Assembly: GCA_028688415.1 (NCBI GenBank)
Contig: JAQTYF010000001.1
Coordinates: forward strand, 272,627-336,626
DNA: 64,000 nt
Direction: 5' to 3'
Origin: Candidatus Moraniibacteriota bacterium
GTDB taxonomy: Bacteria; Patescibacteriota; Minisyncoccia; Moranbacterales; UBA1568
Part shown: in pieces, positions 1,707 to 49,563 of the stretch
Layout: each line of letters begins with the position of its first letter
Position numbering within the stretch: position 1 is the stretch's first letter
Position numbers and translations under genes: made by a program
The notes under the pieces: generated by a model
Database searches by the model: none
Seen by the model: only the letters and a program-made list of their open reading frames with translations
What the model was told of the DNA's origin: nothing

Positions 1707-2684
1707 ATGCAAGAAAATCAGCCGTATTTGTCAGTAGTCGTCCCACTCTATAATGAAGAGGGGAATGTCGCAGAACTGCATCAGAAGATCGTCGAGTCGG
1801 TGCAGAAGATCGGCAAGCCCGCCCGCAACGATTCGCGTAGCGATTCGGGCAGGCCATTTGAAATCATTTTCATCGATGATGGGTCCAAGGACAAGACCGT
1901 GGAAATTGCGAGGAGTCTCTCTCCGCTCAAGCTCATTGTGTTTCGCAAGAACTTCGGTCAGACCGCCGCATTTGACGCGGGATTCAAATCTGCTACAGGA
2001 GAAGTGATCATCACCCTTGATGGCGATCTGCAGAATGACCCGGCCGATATCCCACTCCTGCTCGAAAAAATCAATGAAGGCTATGATGTTGTTTCTGGAT
2101 GGCGTTTCAAGCGTCAGGATCCGTGGAGCAAGAAAATTCCTTCTCGTATTGCCAATCTCCTTCGCAAGATTCTCATCCAAGATACAATTCATGATTCTGG
2201 TTGCAGTCTGAAAGCCTATCGTCGTGAATGTTTCCAGAATGTTGATCTTTTCGGTGAAATGCATCGGTTCATCCCGGCTATTCTCGAGATGGACGGTTTC
2301 CGTGTGGCAGAGGTGAAAGTTTCTCATCATCCTCGTCTCCATGGAGTGACCAAATACAATTGGAAGCGTGGTATGAAAGGCTTCGTCGATATGATGTCGA
2401 TCTGGTTCTGGCGGAAGTATTCGTATCGTCCACTCCATCTGTTTGGTGGTGGTGGAGTAATACTCTTTACGACGGGTGTCGGTATCTTGTTTTGGATGCT
2501 CGTTGAGAAACTCGTTTTTCATGCTTCACTCGCAGAGCGTCTCTGGCCTCTCGTAGGCATCTTTTTCGTGCTCATTGGTGTACAACTTTTCATCTCTGGA
2601 CTACTCGCTGATATGGTAGTGCGAAACTACTATCAGGGTCGCAATCGAATGAACTATACCGTACGAGAAGTGCGGGAGCAGTGA
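1707..2684 (+). CDS. GT2 polyprenol-phosphate glycosyltransferase (GtrB/ArnC-like) with C-terminal TM helices
   Basis: Carries VVPLYNEE...IFIDDGSKD...LDGDLQ and two C-terminal hydrophobic helices, the typical GtrB/ArnC/DPM1 architecture. Confidence 0.85.
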   Translation: MQENQPYLSVVVPLYNEEGNVAELHQKIVESVQKIGKPARNDSRSDSGRPFEIIFIDDGSKDKTVEIARSLSPLKLIVFRKNFGQTAAFDAGFKSATGEVIITLDGDLQNDPADIPLLLEKINEGYDVVSGWRFKRQDPWSKKIPSRIANLLRKILIQDTIHDSGCSLKAYRRECFQNVDLFGEMHRFIPAILEMDGFRVAEVKVSHHPRLHGVTKYNWKRGMKGFVDMMSIWFWRKYSYRPLHLFGGGGVILFTTGVGILFWMLVEKLVFHASLAERLWPLVGIFFVLIGVQLFISGLLADMVVRNYYQGRNRMNYTVREVREQ

Positions 2685-2799
2685 AGCTGTATACCGTATA
2701 CAGTATCGCGTATACTGTATAGAAGAAGACGAAGAATGTTAATAATTAAGCCGTGAATCTGATGTGTCATATGTCATACAGAATACGGTATACAATCCT

Positions 2800-4110
2800 A
2801 TGAAAGTTACTTTTCTCGGTACTGGATATGTCGGACTCGTCTCGGGTGCTTGTCTCGCAGAGAGTGGACACGAAGTCATCTGTGCAGATATTGATAAGAA
2901 GAAGATAGCTATCTTGAAAAAGGGTGGTATCCCTATCTATGAAATCGGTCTCGAAGAAATCGTGAAGCGTAATGTTGAAGAAGGTCGCCTCTCGTTCACT
3001 TCCGATTTGAAGAAAGCCATCCAAGAATCCGAAGTGGTTTTCATGGCTGTTGGTACTCCAGAAGACAAAGTGACGGGTCAAGCAGATCTGCAGTACGTGT
3101 TTGCTGTTGCAGAGACCTTCGGAAAACATCTTAATGGATTCAAACTTTTTGTTGACAAATCGACTGTACCAGTCGGAACGGCCGAAAAAGTAGAGGCGAT
3201 TATCAAGAAGGCTTCGAATGGAGCGCATCCATTCGAAGTGGTATCAAATCCTGAATTTCTCCGTGAAGGAGCTGCTGTGAAAGATTTCCTCAATCCTGAT
3301 CGTGTCGTCGTCGGAACGAAGTCCGAGAAAGCTCGCAAGATGATGGAGCAGATTTATCGCCCTATCGCTCGCAATGGTCGCCCAGTGCTTTTCACTGATG
3401 TACGCAGTGCAGAAATCATCAAATACGCTGCCAACGCATTTCTCGCAATGAAGATTACCTTCATCAATGAAGTAGCAAACTTCTGTGACGTCTCTGGTGG
3501 TAATGTGAAAGAAGTCGCCAAAGGACTCGGTTATGATTCTCGTATTGGAGAACGATTTCTCTATGCTGGTATCGGTTATGGTGGATCGTGTTTTCCGAAA
3601 GATGTGAAGGCATTTCTCGAAACAGGACGTGAATACAATTCACCATTTCAGATTATCGAAACCGTAAACGATGTGAATGTTTCTCAACGTATCAAGCCAT
3701 TCGTCAAACTCCAAGAAGTTTTCGGAAAGAAACTGAAAGATAAAACAATCGCTGTCTGGGGACTCGCTTTCAAACCGCGCACCGATGATATCCGTGAAGC
3801 TCCTGGTATCGAAAATATCAAACTGTTTCTCGAAGCAGGATGCAAAGTACGGACATTCGATCCTGTCGCAATGCCCAATACCAAGAAGGTACTCGCGCAC
3901 AAGAATCTCACCTATACTAAGAAAGCGCTTGATGCATTGAAGGGTGTCGATGCACTCGTGATCGCTACCGAATGGGATGAATTCCGTGTAGTGGATTACA
4001 AGAATATGAAGAAATTGATGAAGGGCAATATCATCTATGATGGACGCAATGTCCTCGAACGATCCGAAGCCGAAGCTGCCGGATTCACGTATTTTGGTAT
4101 TGGAGTTTAG
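2800..4110 (+). CDS. ugd: UDP-glucose 6-dehydrogenase
   Basis: Carries MKVTFLGTGYVGLVSGACLAESGHEV and GGSCFPKDV (catalytic Cys). The ORF opens at GTG 2764, but the canonical N-terminus starts at ATG 2800. Confidence 0.93.
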   Translation: MKVTFLGTGYVGLVSGACLAESGHEVICADIDKKKIAILKKGGIPIYEIGLEEIVKRNVEEGRLSFTSDLKKAIQESEVVFMAVGTPEDKVTGQADLQYVFAVAETFGKHLNGFKLFVDKSTVPVGTAEKVEAIIKKASNGAHPFEVVSNPEFLREGAAVKDFLNPDRVVVGTKSEKARKMMEQIYRPIARNGRPVLFTDVRSAEIIKYAANAFLAMKITFINEVANFCDVSGGNVKEVAKGLGYDSRIGERFLYAGIGYGGSCFPKDVKAFLETGREYNSPFQIIETVNDVNVSQRIKPFVKLQEVFGKKLKDKTIAVWGLAFKPRTDDIREAPGIENIKLFLEAGCKVRTFDPVAMPNTKKVLAHKNLTYTKKALDALKGVDALVIATEWDEFRVVDYKNMKKLMKGNIIYDGRNVLERSEAEAAGFTYFGIGV

Positions 4111-4202
4111 GAAGTCTTGTATAGCGTATTGTGTATACTGTATACCGTATGGAAGAGGGGAAGGGAACAAGTATCACGTATAAAAAAGAAGTCATATTGC
4201 GT

Positions 4203-4586
4203 ATGGAGACGGAGAAAATAAAATCGTTTACTGATTTGAATGCATGGAAAGAAGGGCATAAGCTAGTCCTCTCGGTTTATTCTCTAACGAAGAAATTTCC
4301 TAAAGAAGAAATTTTTGCTCTTTCGAATCAGATGCGACGGTGTGTTGTCTCAATTACTTCAAATATCGCAGAGGGTTTTAGTCGGCAGAGTGCGAAAGAA
4401 AAAGTTCAGTTTTACTGTATAGCACAAGGTTCTGTAACAGAGCTTCAGAACCAACTTCTCATTTCTCGAGATGTTGGATTTATCTCACAAGAAGAATTTT
4501 CTCGTTCGGCAAATATTTCCGTAGATGTACACAAGCTTATTTCCGGATTGATGCGAAGTGCACAGAACCGTGTTCGCAATACATGA
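4203..4586 (+). CDS. four-helix-bundle protein (23S rRNA intervening-sequence protein family, TIGR02436-like)
   Basis: The segment METEKIKSFTDLNAWKEGHKLVLSVYSL...IAEGFSR...QFYCIAQGSVTELQNQL matches the conserved FxDLxVWQ...IAEG...GS..E pattern of IVS four-helix-bundle proteins. The ORF could start at GTG 4131. Confidence 0.7.
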   Translation: METEKIKSFTDLNAWKEGHKLVLSVYSLTKKFPKEEIFALSNQMRRCVVSITSNIAEGFSRQSAKEKVQFYCIAQGSVTELQNQLLISRDVGFISQEEFSRSANISVDVHKLISGLMRSAQNRVRNT

Positions 4587-4616
4587 TACGGTATACATAA
4601 TACAAAATACAGCCCT

Positions 4617-5774
4617 ATGAAAATATTGTTTCTCAATTATGAATATCCTCCACTCGGAGGTGGAGCGGGCAATGCGACAGCGTATCTCTTCAAGGAATAT
4701 GCTGGTATTCCAGACCTCGAGGTACATCTCGTGACCTCGTCTGCAGATGAGACTCTGCATCATATCTCTGTCGGAAAAAATATCACTGTGCATGCCATAC
4801 CGATCGGTAAGAATGGCAAAAACATTCATCATCAATCAGAAAAAGATCTCCTCACATACGCGTGGAAAGGATATCGTTTCGCAGACACCCTCCTCGCAGA
4901 GGGTCATTTTGACGCTATTCATGCGTTTTTCACCGTACCATGTGGCTATATGGCGATGAAACTTTCGAAGAAGCATGGTGTTCCGTATATCGTGTCGCTT
5001 CGCGGGGCCGATGTGCCGGGATACAGTGAGCGTTTTACACTGCTCTATTCGCTTCTACGGCCACTGACGCGTACCATATGGGCTCGAGCCTCAAACGTCG
5101 TATCGAACAGCTCCGGACTCCGTACACTGGCTCTGGAAACGAATTCTTTCCAAGAAATATCTATCATCCCCAATGGTATCAATATCGCAGAGTTCAAGCC
5201 TGATACAGAAAAAGAAATTGATGGTTACGTGAGAATACTCTGTGTCTCGCGTCTCACTCCACGCAAGGGTATCAACTATCTCATCGAGGCGATGCAGATA
5301 CTTCTCACAGAGGATAATGAAAGAAAAATCGAACTCTGGATTGCAGGGGAAGGTGATGCGACCGAATTACTCAAACAACAGGCGAAAGAATTGCGCATCG
5401 AAAAGAATGTGAAGTTTTTCGGTCTTGTGAAACATGATGATTTGGCAAGATATTACAAAATGGCTGATATATTCTGCCTGCCATCGCTCAATGAAGGGAT
5501 GAGTAATACGATGCTCGAAGCCCTCGCCTCAGGGATGCCTATTGTCGCGACAGTGACAGGGGGAACAGAAGAATTGGTCGGAGACGGAGAGAATGGGTTT
5601 TATGTGGAACAAAAATCCTCGAAAGATTTGGCAGAAAAATTGGAAAAGCTCATAGGAAATGATGATATGCGAAAACGATTTGGTACGGCGAGCCGGGTGC
5701 GTGCCGAGCAGATGAGTTGGCAAAACGTCGCACAGGCATATTACGAGATGTATCAGAAAGCGAGAAAGGAATAA
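4617..5774 (+). CDS. GT4 (group 1) glycosyltransferase
   Basis: Has the MKILFLNYEYPPLGGGAGNA N-terminus and a C-terminal E-x7-E-like GT4 core (LPSLNEGMSNTMLEALASGMPIV). Confidence 0.88.
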   Translation: MKILFLNYEYPPLGGGAGNATAYLFKEYAGIPDLEVHLVTSSADETLHHISVGKNITVHAIPIGKNGKNIHHQSEKDLLTYAWKGYRFADTLLAEGHFDAIHAFFTVPCGYMAMKLSKKHGVPYIVSLRGADVPGYSERFTLLYSLLRPLTRTIWARASNVVSNSSGLRTLALETNSFQEISIIPNGINIAEFKPDTEKEIDGYVRILCVSRLTPRKGINYLIEAMQILLTEDNERKIELWIAGEGDATELLKQQAKELRIEKNVKFFGLVKHDDLARYYKMADIFCLPSLNEGMSNTMLEALASGMPIVATVTGGTEELVGDGENGFYVEQKSSKDLAEKLEKLIGNDDMRKRFGTASRVRAEQMSWQNVAQAYYEMYQKARKE

Positions 5775-5879
5775 AAAGTATTGTGTATCACGCATACTGC
5801 ATCGTGTATTTTGGAAAAACTTTGGAAAATTTAAAAGCCGGGGAACGTAGTTATCGTTCACCGGCTTTCGTTTAGGCGG

Positions 5880-6779
5880 TCAGTCTTCGTGACGATGCGC
5901 GAAGAACTCATCTAGGAGCTCGTTGTAGGAGATTTCCGGATAATGGAGCTTTACAAGATGCTCCATCATCATTGGTTGCCGGATAATCTTCTTCTGAAGT
6001 AACCGAGCCCGTTCTGTATTTGGGGCGAAATTGACGTCCCAGAGGAAAGGGTCGGCTCGTCCGACCATACCCCAGCGTGGCATCCGCTGTGTCTTCTTCG
6101 AGAAGCGGAGTGCCAGATCGAAGTCATCCATACCTGCCAGAGCCACTTGTCCTACAGCAGGCAATTCGATAGTTCTGTTATCGTTGCCATCGCAATTTTC
6201 CGGAGAGAATCCCTCCATTTTTTGCAATACTTCTATGGGATAGAGGCAGGCTGTATTCTGAGCGAGAGCCCATTGATACAGACGCCAATACCCCTGACGA
6301 TACGCCCCGACGAAATCGAGTCCGTGTCGCTCCATATGAGCGAACATCCGTGCCAGAATACCGCTGGTCATTTCCAGTTCCGGGTTCCATGACAGAATGT
6401 GTGAAACGTTATTCGTCTCTATGGCAGACCGCCAACCGGTATTGAGCGCGTGCGCACTGCCGGCATTGTTACCCCATTCCTTGTCAACCACGACACGGAG
6501 GAATCCGTTTGTCATCTCGTTGGGGAAAGCCACGAAAAGCGCACGCTTGGTTGGTGTGCAACCGAACTCATCGGTTGCTTCGCCGAGACCGAATCGCAGA
6601 TCGGCATTGGAAACAATAATGATCTGTTTCACTTCCGATCCAATGCTTCGCATGAAGCGACGTAGTGGGGCGGCGAGACGTTTCTCGAAATCTTCCTGAT
6701 TGAAAGACTTGGTGACGCCTGCGCCGATTTGGAACCAACGGCAGATGACTGCCACGTTAGGTTGATAAAAAGAAACCAT
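5880..6779 (-). CDS. hypothetical protein, possible divergent GT-A-fold glycosyltransferase; GC-richer than neighbours
   Basis: A 299-aa ORF with a GGAG RBS. The stretch GNNAGSAHALNTG weakly resembles the GT2 NxGxxxAxNxG block and there is a DDFD acidic motif. Its codon composition differs from the flanking AT-rich genes. Confidence 0.4.
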   Translation of the reverse strand: MVSFYQPNVAVICRWFQIGAGVTKSFNQEDFEKRLAAPLRRFMRSIGSEVKQIIIVSNADLRFGLGEATDEFGCTPTKRALFVAFPNEMTNGFLRVVVDKEWGNNAGSAHALNTGWRSAIETNNVSHILSWNPELEMTSGILARMFAHMERHGLDFVGAYRQGYWRLYQWALAQNTACLYPIEVLQKMEGFSPENCDGNDNRTIELPAVGQVALAGMDDFDLALRFSKKTQRMPRWGMVGRADPFLWDVNFAPNTERARLLQKKIIRQPMMMEHLVKLHYPEISYNELLDEFFAHRHED

Positions 6780-18630: not shown

Positions 18631-20079
18631 ATGAAGACAACAAGACTCATCACAACTTTCTTCCTCTTTTTTCTTTTTCTGATTCCATTGCAGACGATTT
18701 TTTTCTTGCGCGAGCCTTTTATTGGTGGAGAAAAATGGCAGTACGGAACGATTGGATTGTATGGTACGGATATTCTTCTTTTATTTTTAATTATTTTATC
18801 CGCCACTGCTTATTGGAAAAGGAATATTGATTTACGATTTATGATTTATAAATGGAGACCATCTTTTCAGTTTCTTATTCTTAAATCAAAAATCAAAAAT
18901 CATATATCAGAAACATTACTTGGAATGTTTCTTCTGTGGGTGGGGCTCTCGATCTTCTGGGCGGGAGATCAGATACTTGCTCTGTACTTTTTCGTGAAGT
19001 TGCTACTAGCAGTGGGACTTTTTGCTTTTGTCCGATCGAGAGAGATAGATGTAAAGAAAATAGTATGGGTGCTCATACTTCTAGGTGTACTACAGAGCGG
19101 AATCGGCATAGCGCAGTTTCTTGGTCAAAAATCGATAGAATCATCAATTCTTGGTATGAGCAGTTACGATGCCTATCAGGCAGGCTCTTCAGTGCTTAAA
19201 ATCGATTCAGGGAGGTTTTTACGTGCTTATGGCACTTTTCCTCATCCTAATATGCTTGGTGGGTTCCTTGGGGTGATTCTTGTGCTTGGTATAGCCTATT
19301 ATGTGCTTTTTATACGCTACGTAAGATCGTGGGGAATGGCACGCGATATTCTCTTTCTTTTGACCAGTATCATCGTGATTTTCCTCGGACTTCTCCTCAC
19401 TTTTTCGCGATCAGCGTGGCTCGGAGTGGGAGTGGGTATTTTCGTACTTGGCATCGTCGTGTTCCTTCAAAAAGAATGGGATGTCCGAATACGATTTTTC
19501 AAAATACTCATAGCGCTGGGACTCGCAGTCACTGTCTTTGGTTCTCTTCTCTCAGAACAAATCTTGCCGAGATTCGATACGGTAACGATAGAACGTGAGG
19601 GTTCGGTGACCGAACGAGTACAATCATTCCGTGATGCAAGCGTGGTCATCGGAGAAGGGAATGTCCTTCTTGGAACAGGAGCAGGAAATTTCACAGCACG
19701 CATGATCTCACTTCAGCCAGAGCGACCCATCTGGAGTATTCAGCCGGTTCACAATGTATTTGTACTGGTATTCACAGAACTCGGACTTGTTGGGTTTGTA
19801 CTGTTTCTTTTCTTTTTATTTTCACTCATAAAAAATTTCATTGCCGGACTTGACTTGAGACTTCAGAGAGCGTCAAAAAGCCTAGATTCCCGACTACTCG
19901 GGGATGACACAAGCGAGAACCTTATTATAAAAAAAGAAAATATACTCTTTGGTATTGCATTACTTGTTCTTATTCCGAGTCTCTTCCTTGATCACTTCTT
20001 GTGGTCATCACATTTCGGACTTCTCTTTTTCTTTCTTCTTCTCGGTTTGTCACAAATGAAAGAGGAGAAAATTCTTTAG
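18631..20079 (+). CDS. O-antigen ligase / Wzy-like polymerase family membrane protein
   Basis: About 12 TM helices and a FSRSAWLGVGVG loop resembling the Wzy_C/O-antigen-ligase signature. Confidence 0.7.
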   Translation: MKTTRLITTFFLFFLFLIPLQTIFFLREPFIGGEKWQYGTIGLYGTDILLLFLIILSATAYWKRNIDLRFMIYKWRPSFQFLILKSKIKNHISETLLGMFLLWVGLSIFWAGDQILALYFFVKLLLAVGLFAFVRSREIDVKKIVWVLILLGVLQSGIGIAQFLGQKSIESSILGMSSYDAYQAGSSVLKIDSGRFLRAYGTFPHPNMLGGFLGVILVLGIAYYVLFIRYVRSWGMARDILFLLTSIIVIFLGLLLTFSRSAWLGVGVGIFVLGIVVFLQKEWDVRIRFFKILIALGLAVTVFGSLLSEQILPRFDTVTIEREGSVTERVQSFRDASVVIGEGNVLLGTGAGNFTARMISLQPERPIWSIQPVHNVFVLVFTELGLVGFVLFLFFLFSLIKNFIAGLDLRLQRASKSLDSRLLGDDTSENLIIKKENILFGIALLVLIPSLFLDHFLWSSHFGLLFFFLLLGLSQMKEEKIL

Positions 20080-26776: not shown

Positions 26777-26860
26777 TAATTTCTAATATCTAATTTCCAA
26801 TTTCTAATGAATACTGAAAAAAATGGAGGTTTATTTAGATATTAGATATTAGAACTTAGA
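26777..26860. repeat. imperfect palindromic 'tctaat/attaga' repeat element
   Basis: ttaatttctaatatctaatttccaatttctaat … ttagatattagatattagaacttagaaattt. The arms are reverse complements (ctaatatctaat versus attagatattag). Confidence 0.7.
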
Positions 26861-26863
26861 AAT

Positions 26864-28301: not shown

Positions 28302-29588
28302 TTATCGGCCGATACCTTTATAAATAATCCCTGCTTTCTGAAATGCATTTCGATCGAGACAATTCTTTCCATCGATGATCACTTTTATCCCGTGTTTCTT
28401 GAGAAGTGTAGGGGTGATGGTTTCGATGAATACCTGATGATTGGTCGCTACGATGATTGCCTGAGACTTCTTGAGAATGGCTTCGAGTGATTTCATGCTC
28501 GAATCTGATTTCACATACGGATCAAATGTTTCTACTTTAGAATAATGCTTCTTCAGATGTTTGATGATCTCAAATGAAGGGGATTCACGGATATCTTCAA
28601 CATTCGCTTTGTAAGAAAGACCGAGTACTCCGACAACCGTACCTTTCATCGGCATTTTGTTTTCATTCAAAGCATCTTGGAGACGTTCGACGGTATATTC
28701 CGGCATTTCGTTGTTTGTTTTGATAGCGAGCTTCAAAAATTCATGATCAAATCCTGATGCTTTGGCACGTTCGACGAGATAATGAGGATCAACAGGAATA
28801 CAGTGTCCACCGATACCGCATGAGGGGTAATGTGCCATAAAAGCGAATGGTTTTGTAGCAGCGCCATTGATGACATCCTTTACATCGATATCGAGCTTGT
28901 CGAATGAACGAGCAATCTCATTGACAAAAGCGATGTTCACGTTACGGAAGGAATTTTCGAGGATTTTTACTGCCTCTGCCTCACGGATGGTTTTCATCGG
29001 TCGGATATCAGCATCGACGATACTGCGATAGAATTGAAGAGACATTTCGAGACCCTTCTTTTCGAATGAACCAACGACACGAGGGATATTGGTTACATTC
29101 CACTTCGGGTCTCCTGGATTGATGCGCTCTGGACAGTGTGAAATAAAAATATCTTTTCCAATGACGAAACCATGTTGCTCGAAAATTGGTCGCACGACTT
29201 CTTCGGATACGTATGGATTGACGGTGGATTCGAGAACGACGAGCGCTCCCTTTTTGGCCTGCGTAGCGACAATCTCACATGCACCGATCACCGGACCGAG
29301 ATCAGGATGATGAGCGCTGTCAACCGGTGTCGGCACACAGATGATATGTATATCTGCTGGAGCAATATCAGATGGATCAGATGTTGCTCGAAAGGGGTAC
29401 TTGGGAATATTTGCTTCGAGATATGCATCCTTCCAAATATGTTTACCAGACTGAAGAGTTTTTATCTTTTCTTTATTCAAATCAAAACCAATGACAGTAT
29501 ATCCTCTTTCTTGGGAACGTACCGCAAGAGGGAGTCCGACGTAACCAAGACCAATCACCGCAACAGTCTTCAAATCATAATTTGCCAT
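28302..29588 (-). CDS. nucleotide-sugar dehydrogenase (UDP-N-acetyl-D-glucosamine/mannosamine 6-dehydrogenase, WbpA/WecC-like)
   Basis: Begins MANYDLKTVAVIGLGYVGLPLAV, carries GGHCIPVDP (catalytic Cys) and a C-terminal UDP-binding domain. Confidence 0.88.
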   Translation of the reverse strand: MANYDLKTVAVIGLGYVGLPLAVRSQERGYTVIGFDLNKEKIKTLQSGKHIWKDAYLEANIPKYPFRATSDPSDIAPADIHIICVPTPVDSAHHPDLGPVIGACEIVATQAKKGALVVLESTVNPYVSEEVVRPIFEQHGFVIGKDIFISHCPERINPGDPKWNVTNIPRVVGSFEKKGLEMSLQFYRSIVDADIRPMKTIREAEAVKILENSFRNVNIAFVNEIARSFDKLDIDVKDVINGAATKPFAFMAHYPSCGIGGHCIPVDPHYLVERAKASGFDHEFLKLAIKTNNEMPEYTVERLQDALNENKMPMKGTVVGVLGLSYKANVEDIRESPSFEIIKHLKKHYSKVETFDPYVKSDSSMKSLEAILKKSQAIIVATNHQVFIETITPTLLKKHGIKVIIDGKNCLDRNAFQKAGIIYKGIGR

Positions 29589-44252: not shown

Positions 44253-45005
44253 ATGGAAATACTCGGGACCACTATCGACAATCTCACACGAGAAGAAATA
44301 TTGGCACAAATAAAAATATTTTTGGATGAACCAAAATTTCATCAGATTGCCACTGTCAATCCAGAATTTCTCCTTGAGGCAAAGAAAAACAAAGCTTTTC
44401 ATACGATATTGCAAAATTGTGATCTACGTATTGCAGATGGATTTGGTATCACTCTTACAATGCTTTTTCGAGGAGAGAGACTCAAATGCCGTTTCCCTGG
44501 TGCTGATCTGATGGAAGAAATATTGTCCATTGCCAATGAAAAAAAAATCAGTATATATCTTGCTATCAAAAAAGACGGGCTCAGTTCTTTCGATGAAGTA
44601 AGGCAAGCGCTTTTAGAAAGATATCCTACATTAGTGGTTGACGGAGATACTATTGATGTAAATGAGATTTACGATTTAAGATTTAAGATGTTAGAGTCCA
44701 AAATCAAAAATCTAAAATCTAAAATCATTCTTTGTAATTTCGGATCACCGACGCAAGAGATATTCCTTTCTCGTTTGCGTCAGCAGACACGATCAGTGCG
44801 TCTGGCTATGGGTGTCGGTGGCTCCTTCGACTACCTCACCAAGAAGCAAAAACGCGCACCGAGGTGGTTACAGAGCATTGGTCTCGAATGGTTATGGCGA
44901 CTCATACAACAACCACAAAGATGGTACAGAATATGGAATGCCGTCGTTCTTTTCCCTTTTTATGTATTTTTCGCTACAATACAGAAACACGATCATAACA
45001 CCTAA
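44253..45005 (+). CDS. WecB/TagA/CpsF (GT26) family glycosyltransferase
   Basis: Carries …IATVNPEFLLEA…LRIADGFGI…SPTQEIFLSR…MGVGGSFDYLTKKQKRAPRWLQSIGLEWLWRLIQQP, the GT26 C-terminal signature. It contains a low-complexity insert encoded by a DNA inverted repeat. Confidence 0.85.
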   Translation: MEILGTTIDNLTREEILAQIKIFLDEPKFHQIATVNPEFLLEAKKNKAFHTILQNCDLRIADGFGITLTMLFRGERLKCRFPGADLMEEILSIANEKKISIYLAIKKDGLSSFDEVRQALLERYPTLVVDGDTIDVNEIYDLRFKMLESKIKNLKSKIILCNFGSPTQEIFLSRLRQQTRSVRLAMGVGGSFDYLTKKQKRAPRWLQSIGLEWLWRLIQQPQRWYRIWNAVVLFPFYVFFATIQKHDHNT

Positions 45006-48635: not shown

Positions 48636-48726
48636 TAGTCGTACAAAAGAACATTCGTTTTTTTGACTTGCGACTCCCCTCGAAAAAATGAAAAATTGTA
48701 GGGGAGAGAGGAAAAGAAAAAAAGGT

Positions 48727-49060
48727 ATCAAAACGAGTGCCTACAGGTGTACATCTATGTATCCCCAAACCGATCAAAAACGAAGAGAAACAGACATACA
48801 TCGATGACTCAAAAATTTGATCAAAAATGAGTGCTCAGAGGTATACATCTATGCCTCTCCAAATCACTCAAAATGAAAAGAAAAAAATCTATAAAGAATG
48901 AATGCCTAGGAGTATACATTGATGCCTCAGAAAACAGATGATTCCCCTCGCAAAAATGAAAAATAAAAGGGGAGAGAAAATGCTCCTGAAAACGAGCATC
49001 GGAGGGTATACATCAATGTATCTGAAATACAATACAAACCGGAGTGAAAAATGATTCTCT
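48727..49060 (+). repeat. four tandem degenerate ~30-bp direct repeats (atcaaaaNgagtgcYtaNaggtRtacatctATG) at 75-93-bp spacing, each opening a 12-16-codon mini-ORF
   Basis: The copies start near 48727, 48820, 48895 and 48988. Each has a GGAGG/AGGTG-like SD 7-9 nt before the ATG. The peptides are MYPQTDQKRRETDIHR, MPLQITQNEKKKIYKE, MPQKTDDSPRKNEK and MYLKYNTNRSEK. Confidence 0.6.
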
Positions 49061-49563
49061 CGATATACGAGAATACGCGCTAGAGAAATGAGAAGGAAAA
49101 GAGGTATATACGTATCACTTTTTATTCCAAACACCGTATACGCGATTATACGCATTCGTTTTGAATCGATTCGAGGACATACAAGTATCAATTACTCATA
49201 TTTGGCTTATATAAGCTATATAATGAATCAATACTTCTGTTCTCTTCCTATGCTATGTCGCATAAGTTACATAATGCGACGTTGTATAAGAAATAAAAAA
49301 TACTCTCTCCATTCAATACTAAACTCTTCTTTCTTACACTGATTACTACTCTTTCATTTTCTTTTTCTTCCCTCCTCTTCTCTCTACGGATCAATTTATT
49401 GGTCAAAAAAATACTTACTTTTTCTTCTTTTTATTATTCTCTTTTTTTGTTTCATTCTTGTTTACTTTACTTACACCATAACGAAAAGAAAAAGAAAATA
49501 AAAAAACCGGAAATTTTGTTGTTACAAAAAAACCGGCTTTATAAGTGATCGGGTAAAGACAGA

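Follow-up and report, generated by a model that had tools for sequence, protein, structure and literature searches.

In the genome of a Candidatus Moraniibacteriota bacterium (Patescibacteriota), a gene for a four-helix-bundle (4HB) protein of the kind classically encoded inside 23S rRNA intervening sequences (IVSs) sits in the spacer of a protein-coding operon, between two facing arrays of tandem heptanucleotides. The gene was examined within a stretch of 64,000 nucleotides (nt), hereafter the window (contig JAQTYF010000001.1, positions 272,627 to 336,626), in which a first-pass annotation had drawn attention to a perfect 12-bp inverted repeat around the gene. It can be stated with high confidence that this repeat is the best-matching stretch of two 35-nt arrays of five heptads each, GTATNNN upstream and ATACNNN downstream of the PF05635 gene. 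With the same high confidence, the 4HB gene and its arrays constitute one heritable unit, as in the 23S rRNA IVSs that bear an open reading frame (ORF), here lodged in a spacer of a GT2-ugd-GT4 glycosylation operon. A survey of homologues finds the gene enclosed by heptad arrays in almost every case, and the arrays inverted in nearly all of them, whether in rRNA or in cas and metabolic operons, and in at least five phyla.

The cassette lies in a co-directional block that opens with a GT2 glycosyltransferase gene (1707-2684, +) and continues with ugd, encoding UDP-glucose 6-dehydrogenase (2800-4110, +), as the upstream neighbour of the cassette, and a GT4 glycosyltransferase gene (4617-5774, +) as the downstream neighbour. 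The left arm (4119-4153, +) begins 8 nt past the ugd stop codon (TAG, 4108-4110) and is made of the heptads GTATAGC, GTATTGT, GTATACT, GTATACC and GTATGGA. The 4HB gene (4203-4586, +) encodes 127 amino acids (aa), and the right arm (4579-4613, +; ATACATG, ATACGGT, ATACATA, ATACAAA, ATACAGC) overlaps its final codons and TGA stop and ends 3 nt (CCT) ahead of the GT4 start codon (ATG, 4617). The 12-mer TGTATACCGTAT falls within the left arm at 4139-4150 (+), and its exact reverse complement at 4586-4597 shares its first base with the last base of the TGA stop (4584-4586). Every coordinate of these repeats in the first-pass annotation was borne out, as was its placement of the gene, as a discrete unit, between inverted repeats within the spacer of an operon; their length was understated, however, since the 12-bp core belongs to arms of 25-26 nt, and the heptad periodicity was missed. 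The cassette arms are complementary over 25 nt at 88% (4126-4150 with 4586-4610), or over 33 nt at 76%. In the entire window the 12-mer has exactly four exact copies, the fourth at 2783-2794 (-); they form two inverted pairs with a strict left (+) and right (-) pattern, and each copy is the best-matching part of a tandem heptanucleotide array of 28-35 nt. Allowing up to two mismatches, 15 matches occur in the 64 kb against 2.08 expected, a count reached in none of 100 shuffles. The periodic motif GTATN3GTATN3GTAT matches 12 times against 0.16 expected, always in the arms except for one match in an array at 5778-5812.

The region between the left arm and the start codon (4141-4202, +) looks like a decayed 54-nt tandem duplicate of the 5' end of the gene: 4141-4162 resembles 4195-4216, and the whole of 4141-4248 appears to be a tandem duplication of the last heptad and the first 4HB codons. 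An in-frame ATG at 4149, inside the last left heptad, would extend the protein by 18 residues (MEEGKGTSITYKKEVILR; ORF 4131-4586), and in the related loci L004, L024 and L056 the start codon of the 4HB gene is within the last heptad itself.

The arrays accompany the gene well beyond this genome. Eighty-five Patescibacteria loci, including 80 further ones from species-representative genomes of many lineages, were scanned with a strict detector that calls an array where at least three copies share four invariant contiguous columns. An array was found upstream of the gene in 72/85 loci, downstream in 75/85 and on both sides in 64/85, with about 0.03 expected per flank; the association stands about 28-fold above background. 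In total, 327 arrays were detected (222 with at least four copies), compared with 11-23 (0-1) in shuffles that keep local composition. The period of 7 is unique, as other periods between 5 and 12 yield 0-12 arrays of at least four copies against the 222. Within the period, 4-5 positions are conserved and 2-3 are free, and the unit consensus reads G-W-A-K-h-A-n. Core types comprise GAAT (45 loci), GTAT (27) and GTAG (6), which grade into each other within single arrays, as in the GTAT/GTAG mixtures of L002, L051 and L082. Copy number ranges from 3 to 6 with a peak at 4-5 and is rarely 10 or more, and a general rule of five heptads, one per protein subunit, was rejected on these counts, five being constant only in the ugd|GT4 orthologues. 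The idea that a spacing of 7 serves to present ATG/TGA (ATGA), or stop codons, in all three reading frames was discarded as well: a T stands at position 7 in no more than 33-40% of units, which means that ATG is not conserved in the heptad.

The genomic setting of these loci is equally regular. The G-containing arm lies upstream of the ORF in all Patescibacteria loci, the upstream neighbour is co-oriented with the cassette in 75 of 77 loci and the downstream neighbour in 74 of 80, and the median gaps to the neighbours are 31 nt upstream and 25 nt downstream, which means that the arrays essentially are the spacers. The neighbours themselves are diverse, with 54 families upstream and 57 downstream among about 80 loci; junctions that recur in distant genomes are ugd|GT4 and ferredoxin-type|porA-like. 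Arrays also occur without the gene: about 27 ORF-less hairpins with loops of 2-93 nt were found in 648 kb; co-directional genes surround every one of the 15 whose flanks are clear, three hairpins lie within genes, and a further 110 arrays are unpaired. Array pairs with loops of 300-630 nt enclose 4HB genes in L019, L039, L081 and L083, the last a divergent classical member on the opposite strand. Long-loop pairs with no recognisable 4HB gene were seen in L005 (501-1125, enclosing rpmF, for L32), L063 (2091-2781, an ORF-less loop of 628 nt) and L065 (5007-5445, a loop of 371 nt with no clear ORF).

Outside Patescibacteria, heptad arrays flank ten of the ten homologues examined. Their units are GGGTGTA and TACACCC in Calothrix, GGAAAAG and GTCAGGA in Nostoc, GGGAAGA in Geminocystis, GGCAGAA in Stanieria and AAGGTTY in Riemerella. 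On cyanobacterial plasmids the 4HB gene resides in cas operons, at cmr2|cmr3 in Picosynechococcus (L174) and at cas6|cas4 in Anabaena sp. 90 (L175). It is also at cas6|cas4 on a Pseudanabaena plasmid (L173), where the AAAAGCY arrays are in direct orientation, the only such case among the homologues examined; these arrays are very long, the upstream one having at least 14 units and the downstream one about 12, of which 9 are contiguous and the others interrupted. On the Azospirillum lipoferum plasmid AZO_p2, the 4HB ORF is found some 1.2 kb inside a 23S rRNA gene, with four AGAGGAC/GGATGAC units and a complementary array. The earlier suggestion that the family travels on a small hairpin-forming element and is not specific to rRNA is thereby upheld, the unit being present in most of the 85 Patescibacteria loci, in cyanobacterial cas and other operons, in Riemerella and in the Azospirillum 23S gene.

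The protein belongs to the 23S rRNA IVS family, as first proposed. It matches PF05635 with E=7e-35 and 119.9 bits (cutoff 33.8) over residues 11-114 of 127, and TIGR02436 with 112.2 bits (cutoff 24), while the models for Avd, an accessory protein of diversity-generating retroelements (DGRs), remain below cutoff (PF22296, 27.8 bits against 40; NF033474, 23.2 bits against 80). Neither a reverse transcriptase nor a pair of template and variable repeats lies nearby, the neighbours being GT2, ugd, GT4 and an LPG-synthase transmembrane protein. Among solved structures, XCC0516 (PDB 2GSC) is a sequence relative (E=1.4e-18); 2GSC and a second solved relative, 2RLD, were deposited with five chains each, and XCC0516 has been described as a homopentameric toroid (PMC4990558). 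A search with the window protein returned 5419 relatives at E <= 1e-10, with thousands in Patescibacteria; looking up its 127-aa and 151-aa forms as exact sequences in the contig index gave no match. The gene is strongly constrained, with a ratio of nonsynonymous to synonymous substitution (dN/dS) of about 0.03 against L001 and L004 at saturated synonymous sites (dS 1.6-2.1). No rRNA and no other Rfam family reaches the gathering threshold in the window, and a miRNA hit (E=0.9) is put down to chance; the element is not in helix 25 or 45 of a 23S rRNA but between two coding genes, ugd and GT4.

The same junction in related genomes permits a reconstruction of its history. In the closest 4HB relatives (90, 87 and 79% identity), the order GT2-ugd-4HB-GT4 and the arrays are kept, and the three free positions of each unit differ; the ugd|4HB|GT4 junction is also present in L024 and L056 (66% and 60% identity), which brings it to six genomes with 4HB identities from about 90% down to 60%. 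Five orthologous cassettes have 5+5 heptads each, and across them the 4-nt cores are identical in 200/200 comparisons on the left and 156/160 on the right, against 41-42% identity at the free positions. Taken with the low dN/dS, the invariance of the cores at saturated synonymous divergence indicates strong purifying selection on both the protein and the array cores. Neither outcome that would have spoken against the first-pass annotation was seen: the repeats are found in the relatives that have the gene, and the 12-mer is far from ubiquitous.

To remove ascertainment bias, relatives were also sought through ugd instead of the 4HB protein, and this comparison, of the kind the first-pass annotation had called for, showed the segment to be either present or missing in its entirety between flanks that are conserved. 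Four relatives found in this way lack the cassette (L091-L094) and one has a bare hairpin (L095). In L091, the closest by ugd (about 95% identical), an unrelated gene occupies the ugd|GT4 junction (2355-3003); it would encode about 200 aa with a signal-peptide-like N-terminus, and no heptad arrays accompany it. In L092 and L094, ugd is directly joined to GT4, and L093 has other content at the junction. In L095 (ugd 66% identical), an ORF-less heptad hairpin fills the junction at 3806-3920, AAAATCY x3 followed by GGRDTTT x3-4, with the C-containing arm first. Carriers and non-carriers are interleaved in the ugd tree, and 4HB identity parallels ugd identity, a pattern more in keeping with vertical inheritance and recurrent loss than with repeated targeting. 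In the simplest history, the cassette is an old resident of the ugd|GT4 junction; entire cassettes disappeared several times, and in one case only the arms were left. The recent arrival implied by the first-pass annotation is therefore probably not what occurred, the two identities declining together from about 90% to 60-66% over six genomes.

A second, ORF-less copy of the element occupies the GT2-ugd spacer (2689-2796, +). It begins 4 nt past the GT2 stop codon, ends 3 nt (CCT) ahead of the ugd ATG (2800) and comprises a left arm of five GTATNNN units (2689-2723), a 45-nt loop and a right arm (2769-2796) reading ATATGTC, ATACAGA, ATACGGT and ATACAAT. Its arms are 81% complementary over 26 nt (2688-2713 with 2769-2794), and the fold of 2689-2796 has a z-score of -2.35 against shuffles. 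The near-palindrome CTGTATACCGTATACAG, confirmed at 2687-2703 and first taken for an unoccupied target, corresponds to heptads 1-2 of this left arm; it is no empty site because it forms part of a complete two-armed hairpin whose right arm had been overlooked. Only the window and L001 have this copy; it is missing from L002, L003, L004, L091, L092 and L094. The two ends of its loop are similar to the 5' and 3' termini of the cassette's gene region, and it is probably an internally deleted cassette copy that was seeded into the adjacent spacer. By comparison of these genomes, the cassette is ancient at ugd|GT4, and the ORF-less copy appeared next to it in the lineage of the window and L001.

In the minimum-free-energy fold of 4108-4620, the two arrays are paired and the ugd UAG is placed opposite the region just before the GT4 AUG. 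Among the loci, the best stem has a median of 27 nt with 23 matches, and arms are more complementary to their cognate partners than to non-cognate arms of their own core type (18.4 vs 13.6, p=1.7e-10; 17.4 vs 13.0, p=7e-7). That cognate complementarity persists while the free positions are randomised between orthologues points to compensation or concerted evolution of the arms. We lean, with moderate confidence, towards reading the cassette as an IVS-type stem-loop in an mRNA spacer that would be processed, or would couple its neighbours, through the paired arrays; pairing in the transcript and processing of the cassette are what we infer from these folds and comparisons. The cassette would be transcribed with the operon, whereupon the arrays would pair into an imperfect helix of about 25-30 bp, holding the 4HB ORF in the loop and bringing the ugd stop beside the GT4 start. 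This helix may be a substrate of a double-strand-specific RNase (RNase III), a coupling hairpin or both, as in rRNA IVSs, and in either role it would leave the flanking cistrons expressed. A periodic, sequence-specific factor probably reads the arrays as well, and the pentameric 4HB protein is the obvious candidate for it; such a reader is suggested because pairing alone fails to explain an invariant 4-nt core every 7 nt.

Several observations weigh against this stem-loop interpretation. The fold of the whole transcript (4108-4620) is only modestly better than shuffles (z = -1.9), and the stems are AU-rich and about 85% paired. Mismatches in the stems have no excess of G:U over A:C (60 vs 53, in a test of low power), so that an RNA-specific signature is absent. 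The solitary arrays, comprising 5778-5812, the 110 unpaired ones and most of those in Xanthomonas, together with the direct orientation in L173, imply that pairing is not their sole role. Finally, the link between the 4HB protein and the repeats is circumstantial: for proteins with GAAT- and GTAT-type arrays, similarity between the types is nearly as high as similarity within a type (0.628 and 0.647).

Some of these points can be turned towards another explanation, which we regard as possible but doubtful: the arrays would be mainly RNA or DNA binding sites of a ring-shaped or cooperative protein, and the hairpin would be secondary. The most plausible such protein would be the 4HB pentamer, each subunit taking one heptad. 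The 4HB gene would then be autoregulated through its own arrays, with ORF-less arrays as further sites. In favour of this view is the strict 7-nt period with conserved and free positions, and cores that remain invariant at saturating divergence beside randomised spacer positions are not predicted by selection for pairing alone. The peak of copy number at 4-5, the 5+5 heptads of the five orthologues, the five chains of 2GSC and 2RLD, the toroid of XCC0516, the solitary arrays and the direct-orientation pair all agree with it. Extra arrays within 4 kb share the core type of the local 4HB cassette in 46 of 54 cases against 24 expected (none of 2000 permutations reached 46), and residue 64 of the window protein (alignment column 64), immediately after the invariant NIAEGFSRQS, is Y or F in 42/45 proteins with GAAT-type arrays and a mixture of K, A, S and F where the arrays are of GTAT or GTAG type. 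This is the only strongly array-type-associated column outside the array-encoded C-terminus, and its signal is confounded by phylogeny, just as the sharing of repeat type by nearest-neighbour proteins (62/78 vs 35 expected) is confounded by descent. Discrete classes of protein-repeat specificity were rejected on the nearly equal identities within and between types; the GTAT/GTAG mixtures within single arrays do not fit discrete specificities, and the window has three core types but only one 4HB gene. A broader form of the idea is put forward just as tentatively: PF05635 pentamers and heptanucleotide arrays might be two halves of one widespread system, one 7-nt unit per subunit and five for five, in which the gene would always lie between its own arrays and the gene-less arrays and hairpins in spacers, coding regions and rRNA helices would be sites or derivatives.

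The mechanism envisaged in the first-pass annotation, in which a small mobile DNA element would bring the 4HB gene into pre-existing palindromic hairpin sites, 2687-2703 being an empty target, now appears improbable. The diversity of neighbour families, the presence and absence of elements at the ugd|GT4 junction and in the GT2-ugd spacer, and a heptad hairpin in a TagA ORF that is missing from its closest orthologue would all suit it. Nevertheless, the supposed target is part of a full two-armed ORF-less element, relatives without the element have ordinary short spacers with no palindrome, and there is no sign of insertion into a host hairpin, as the arms go with the gene in every phylum with the G-containing arm upstream and hence belong to the element. 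The parallel between 4HB and ugd identity over six genomes also speaks against it. The sequence outside the elements reads agct...cct for the cassette and gaagtctt...cct for the ORF-less copy, with no direct duplication flanking either 4119-4613 or 2689-2796, and family scans of the window locus and the relatives' loci saw no recombinase or transposase with the element. An integron gene cassette does not describe it either, since repeats lie on both sides of the ORF and no integrase is among the scanned neighbours. Less likely still is that the arrays are unrelated to the gene, either as neutral by-products of slippage (ordinary simple sequence repeats) or as a promoter or operator motif of the operon. 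Heptanucleotide repeats are reported to be the most abundant class of long simple sequence repeats in many bacteria, with polymerase slippage as the explanation (cited in PMC4679880), and GTATAC-like motifs can be read as palindromic operators. Conservation and association statistics largely refute both versions: the gene association far exceeds background, the cores are invariant at dS above 1.6, and copy number is narrowly peaked instead of geometric. The 12-mer, moreover, occurs at two spacers only, in its strict left and right orientation, with the motif absent elsewhere in the window, and the promoter scan is not enriched (14 vs 9.3 +/- 3.2 expected).

Other heptad arrays in the window lack a 4HB gene. 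A solitary, degenerate left-type array (5778-5812, +; GTATTGT, GTATCAC, GCATACT, GCATCGT, GTATTTT) starts 3 nt past the GT4 stop and has no right partner. At about 5837-5873, inspection of the letters reveals a terminator-like GC-rich hairpin followed by a T-rich tail, which the scan behind the promoter counts did not list; it faces a convergent gene ending at 5880. The segment 5778-5873 is likely the end of the operon. Three ORF-less heptad hairpins have other cores. At 26777-26863 (-), TCTAAN/ATTAGAN units fill the spacer of two minus-strand genes (z = -4.3), the left arm beginning at the stop (26864) and the right arm ending 9 nt ahead of the next ATG (26766). The hairpin at 18829-18912 (+; GATTTAN x3 ... 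AAATCAN x4, z = -3.5) is in frame within ORF 18631-20079, which encodes a 482-aa multi-pass membrane protein, and that at 44666-44729 (+; GATTTAN x3 ... AAAATCN x4) is in frame within a TagA/WecG-family ORF (44253-45005). The latter encodes EIYDLRFKMLESKIKNLKSKI, and the two hairpins are translated in the same element frame (..DLRF...SKIKN..). The closest TagA orthologue (P0122/L171) is 84% identical, and 100% over the C-terminal 59 alignment columns; at the hairpin site its segment is unrelated and shorter by 9 aa, and the one palindrome there is a small ATCGAT...ATCGAT. Against the solved TagA (7mpk), the hairpin-bearing gene has no net change in length. A clean insertion was not upheld, with 9 aa gained in a hypervariable segment relative to the orthologue and none relative to the solved protein; the case looks like replacement or expansion of a variable segment and is ambiguous between insertion and in-situ expansion.

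Two further features of the window were recorded. A noncoding stretch of about 600 nt (48640-49250) contains five copies of a repeat of about 50 nt (AAAACGAGTGCC.A.AGGTRTACATCWATG...), 47-94 nt apart, together with a hairpin unit, CCCCTC...GAGGGG, that occurs twice; the stretch may resemble an iteron region or an origin. It accounts for a local cluster of GTATAC sites in the window. A self-search with tblastn identified a second UDP-glucose/GDP-mannose dehydrogenase-like gene (28308-29564, -), 28.5% identical to ugd.

The closest parallels are the ORF-bearing 23S IVSs of Coxiella burnetii, Leptospira and Azospirillum lipoferum, which, like the cassette, hold an S23p (PF05635) ORF in the loop of a terminal inverted-repeat stem and are of similar size (about 0.45-0.5 kb). 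Tandem heptamers precede the ORF there as the five GTATNNN units do in the window: in Coxiella, RNase III cuts a terminal stem of 28 bp that includes two or three GACAGAT heptamers ahead of the S23p ORF (PMC4990558), and the Azospirillum IVS has AGAGGAC/GGATGAC x4. The differences concern the host RNA and the state of the gene. The 23S IVSs are in helix 25 or 45 of rRNA, whereas the window cassette lies in the transcript of a protein-coding operon; for the Coxiella ORF, decay and a probable lack of translation have been reported, whereas the window gene is under strong purifying selection (dN/dS 0.03). Excision by RNase III is demonstrated for rRNA IVSs and is a prediction for the cassette.

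A second comparison is with over-represented heptanucleotide repeats, namely GGGAATC in Xanthomonas and GGGGA(T/C)T in Nostoc (Rehm et al. 2015, PMC4692102), TAACTGA in Beggiatoaceae (PMC4679880) and the cyanobacterial STRR sequences. Like the window arrays, these repeats are intergenic tandem 7-nt units, often a few nt ahead of a start codon. The Xanthomonas GGGAATC arrays include 70-75 convergent (inverted) pairs, which resemble the window arms; one array, supplementary repeat #15 of the survey (four units), overlaps the XCC0516 start codon by 17 nt and lies 6 nt from bccP (PMC4692102). Most arrays of these over-represented repeats are not beside a 4HB gene, and they differ from the Patescibacteria heptads, which are AT-rich with a single G or C. 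Neither PMC4692102 nor PMC4679880, which discuss G-quadruplexes or translation control, mentions S23, four-helix proteins or intervening sequences.

REPIN-RAYT systems and MITEs (miniature transposable elements with inverted repeats) share with the cassette a gene between short inverted repeats, gene-less intergenic hairpin doublets and lineage-specific repeat families. In REPIN-RAYT systems the gene so flanked is that of a REP-associated tyrosine transposase, and the repeats are inverted REP sequences. Presence and absence at a locus and dispersed gene-less copies are found here too; the cassette differs in encoding a 127-aa helical bundle with no transposase or nuclease match (only PF05635 and bAvd models respond), in the 7-nt periodicity of its repeats and in vertical inheritance at its locus. 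The DGR accessory protein Avd (bAvd) has a homologous four-helix-bundle pentamer fold, although the matches of the window protein to it are below cutoff and the DGR components are missing nearby. Heptad operators of the omega repressor (pSM19035), and the sites of TRAP and HutP, are short units of fixed period, direct or inverted, that a small oligomeric protein reads cooperatively. Their resemblance to the heptad arrays is only an analogy; the protein folds are unrelated to PF05635, and array binding by PF05635 proteins is hypothetical. Rickettsia palindromic elements are in-frame palindromic insertions in ORFs. They resemble the two translated hairpins of the window, except that the TagA case is unlike a clean insertion.

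Much of what the cassette combines is already known separately, including S23p ORF-carrying IVSs, the Coxiella IVS heptamers, over-represented heptanucleotide repeats and PF05635 genes within cas operons and others (PMC3936711 mentions the association with cas). In the searchable but incomplete literature, no statement was found that PF05635 genes generally sit between paired heptad arrays, nor any that connects families of heptanucleotide repeats with this protein, and the Coxiella paper (PMC4990558) was the only one to describe such proteins together with heptad repeats; both negatives are provisional. The PF05635 'IVS' or 'S23' proteins are very abundant, annotated as 'four helix bundle protein' and unassigned in function, and the arrays give them a testable link. 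Heptanucleotide repeats have in turn long been noted, unexplained, as over-represented long simple repeats, and the link offered here is array-protein binding together with array-directed RNA processing. For annotation, paired period-7 arrays provide a simple signature of 4HB units and their ORF-less relatives. The rRNA IVSs are reframed as one habitat of a general operon-dwelling cassette, and, should pentamers and arrays prove to be halves of one system, this would explain the role of the IVS protein, its carriage by rRNA IVSs and the over-representation of STRR, GGGAATC and TAACTGA repeats.

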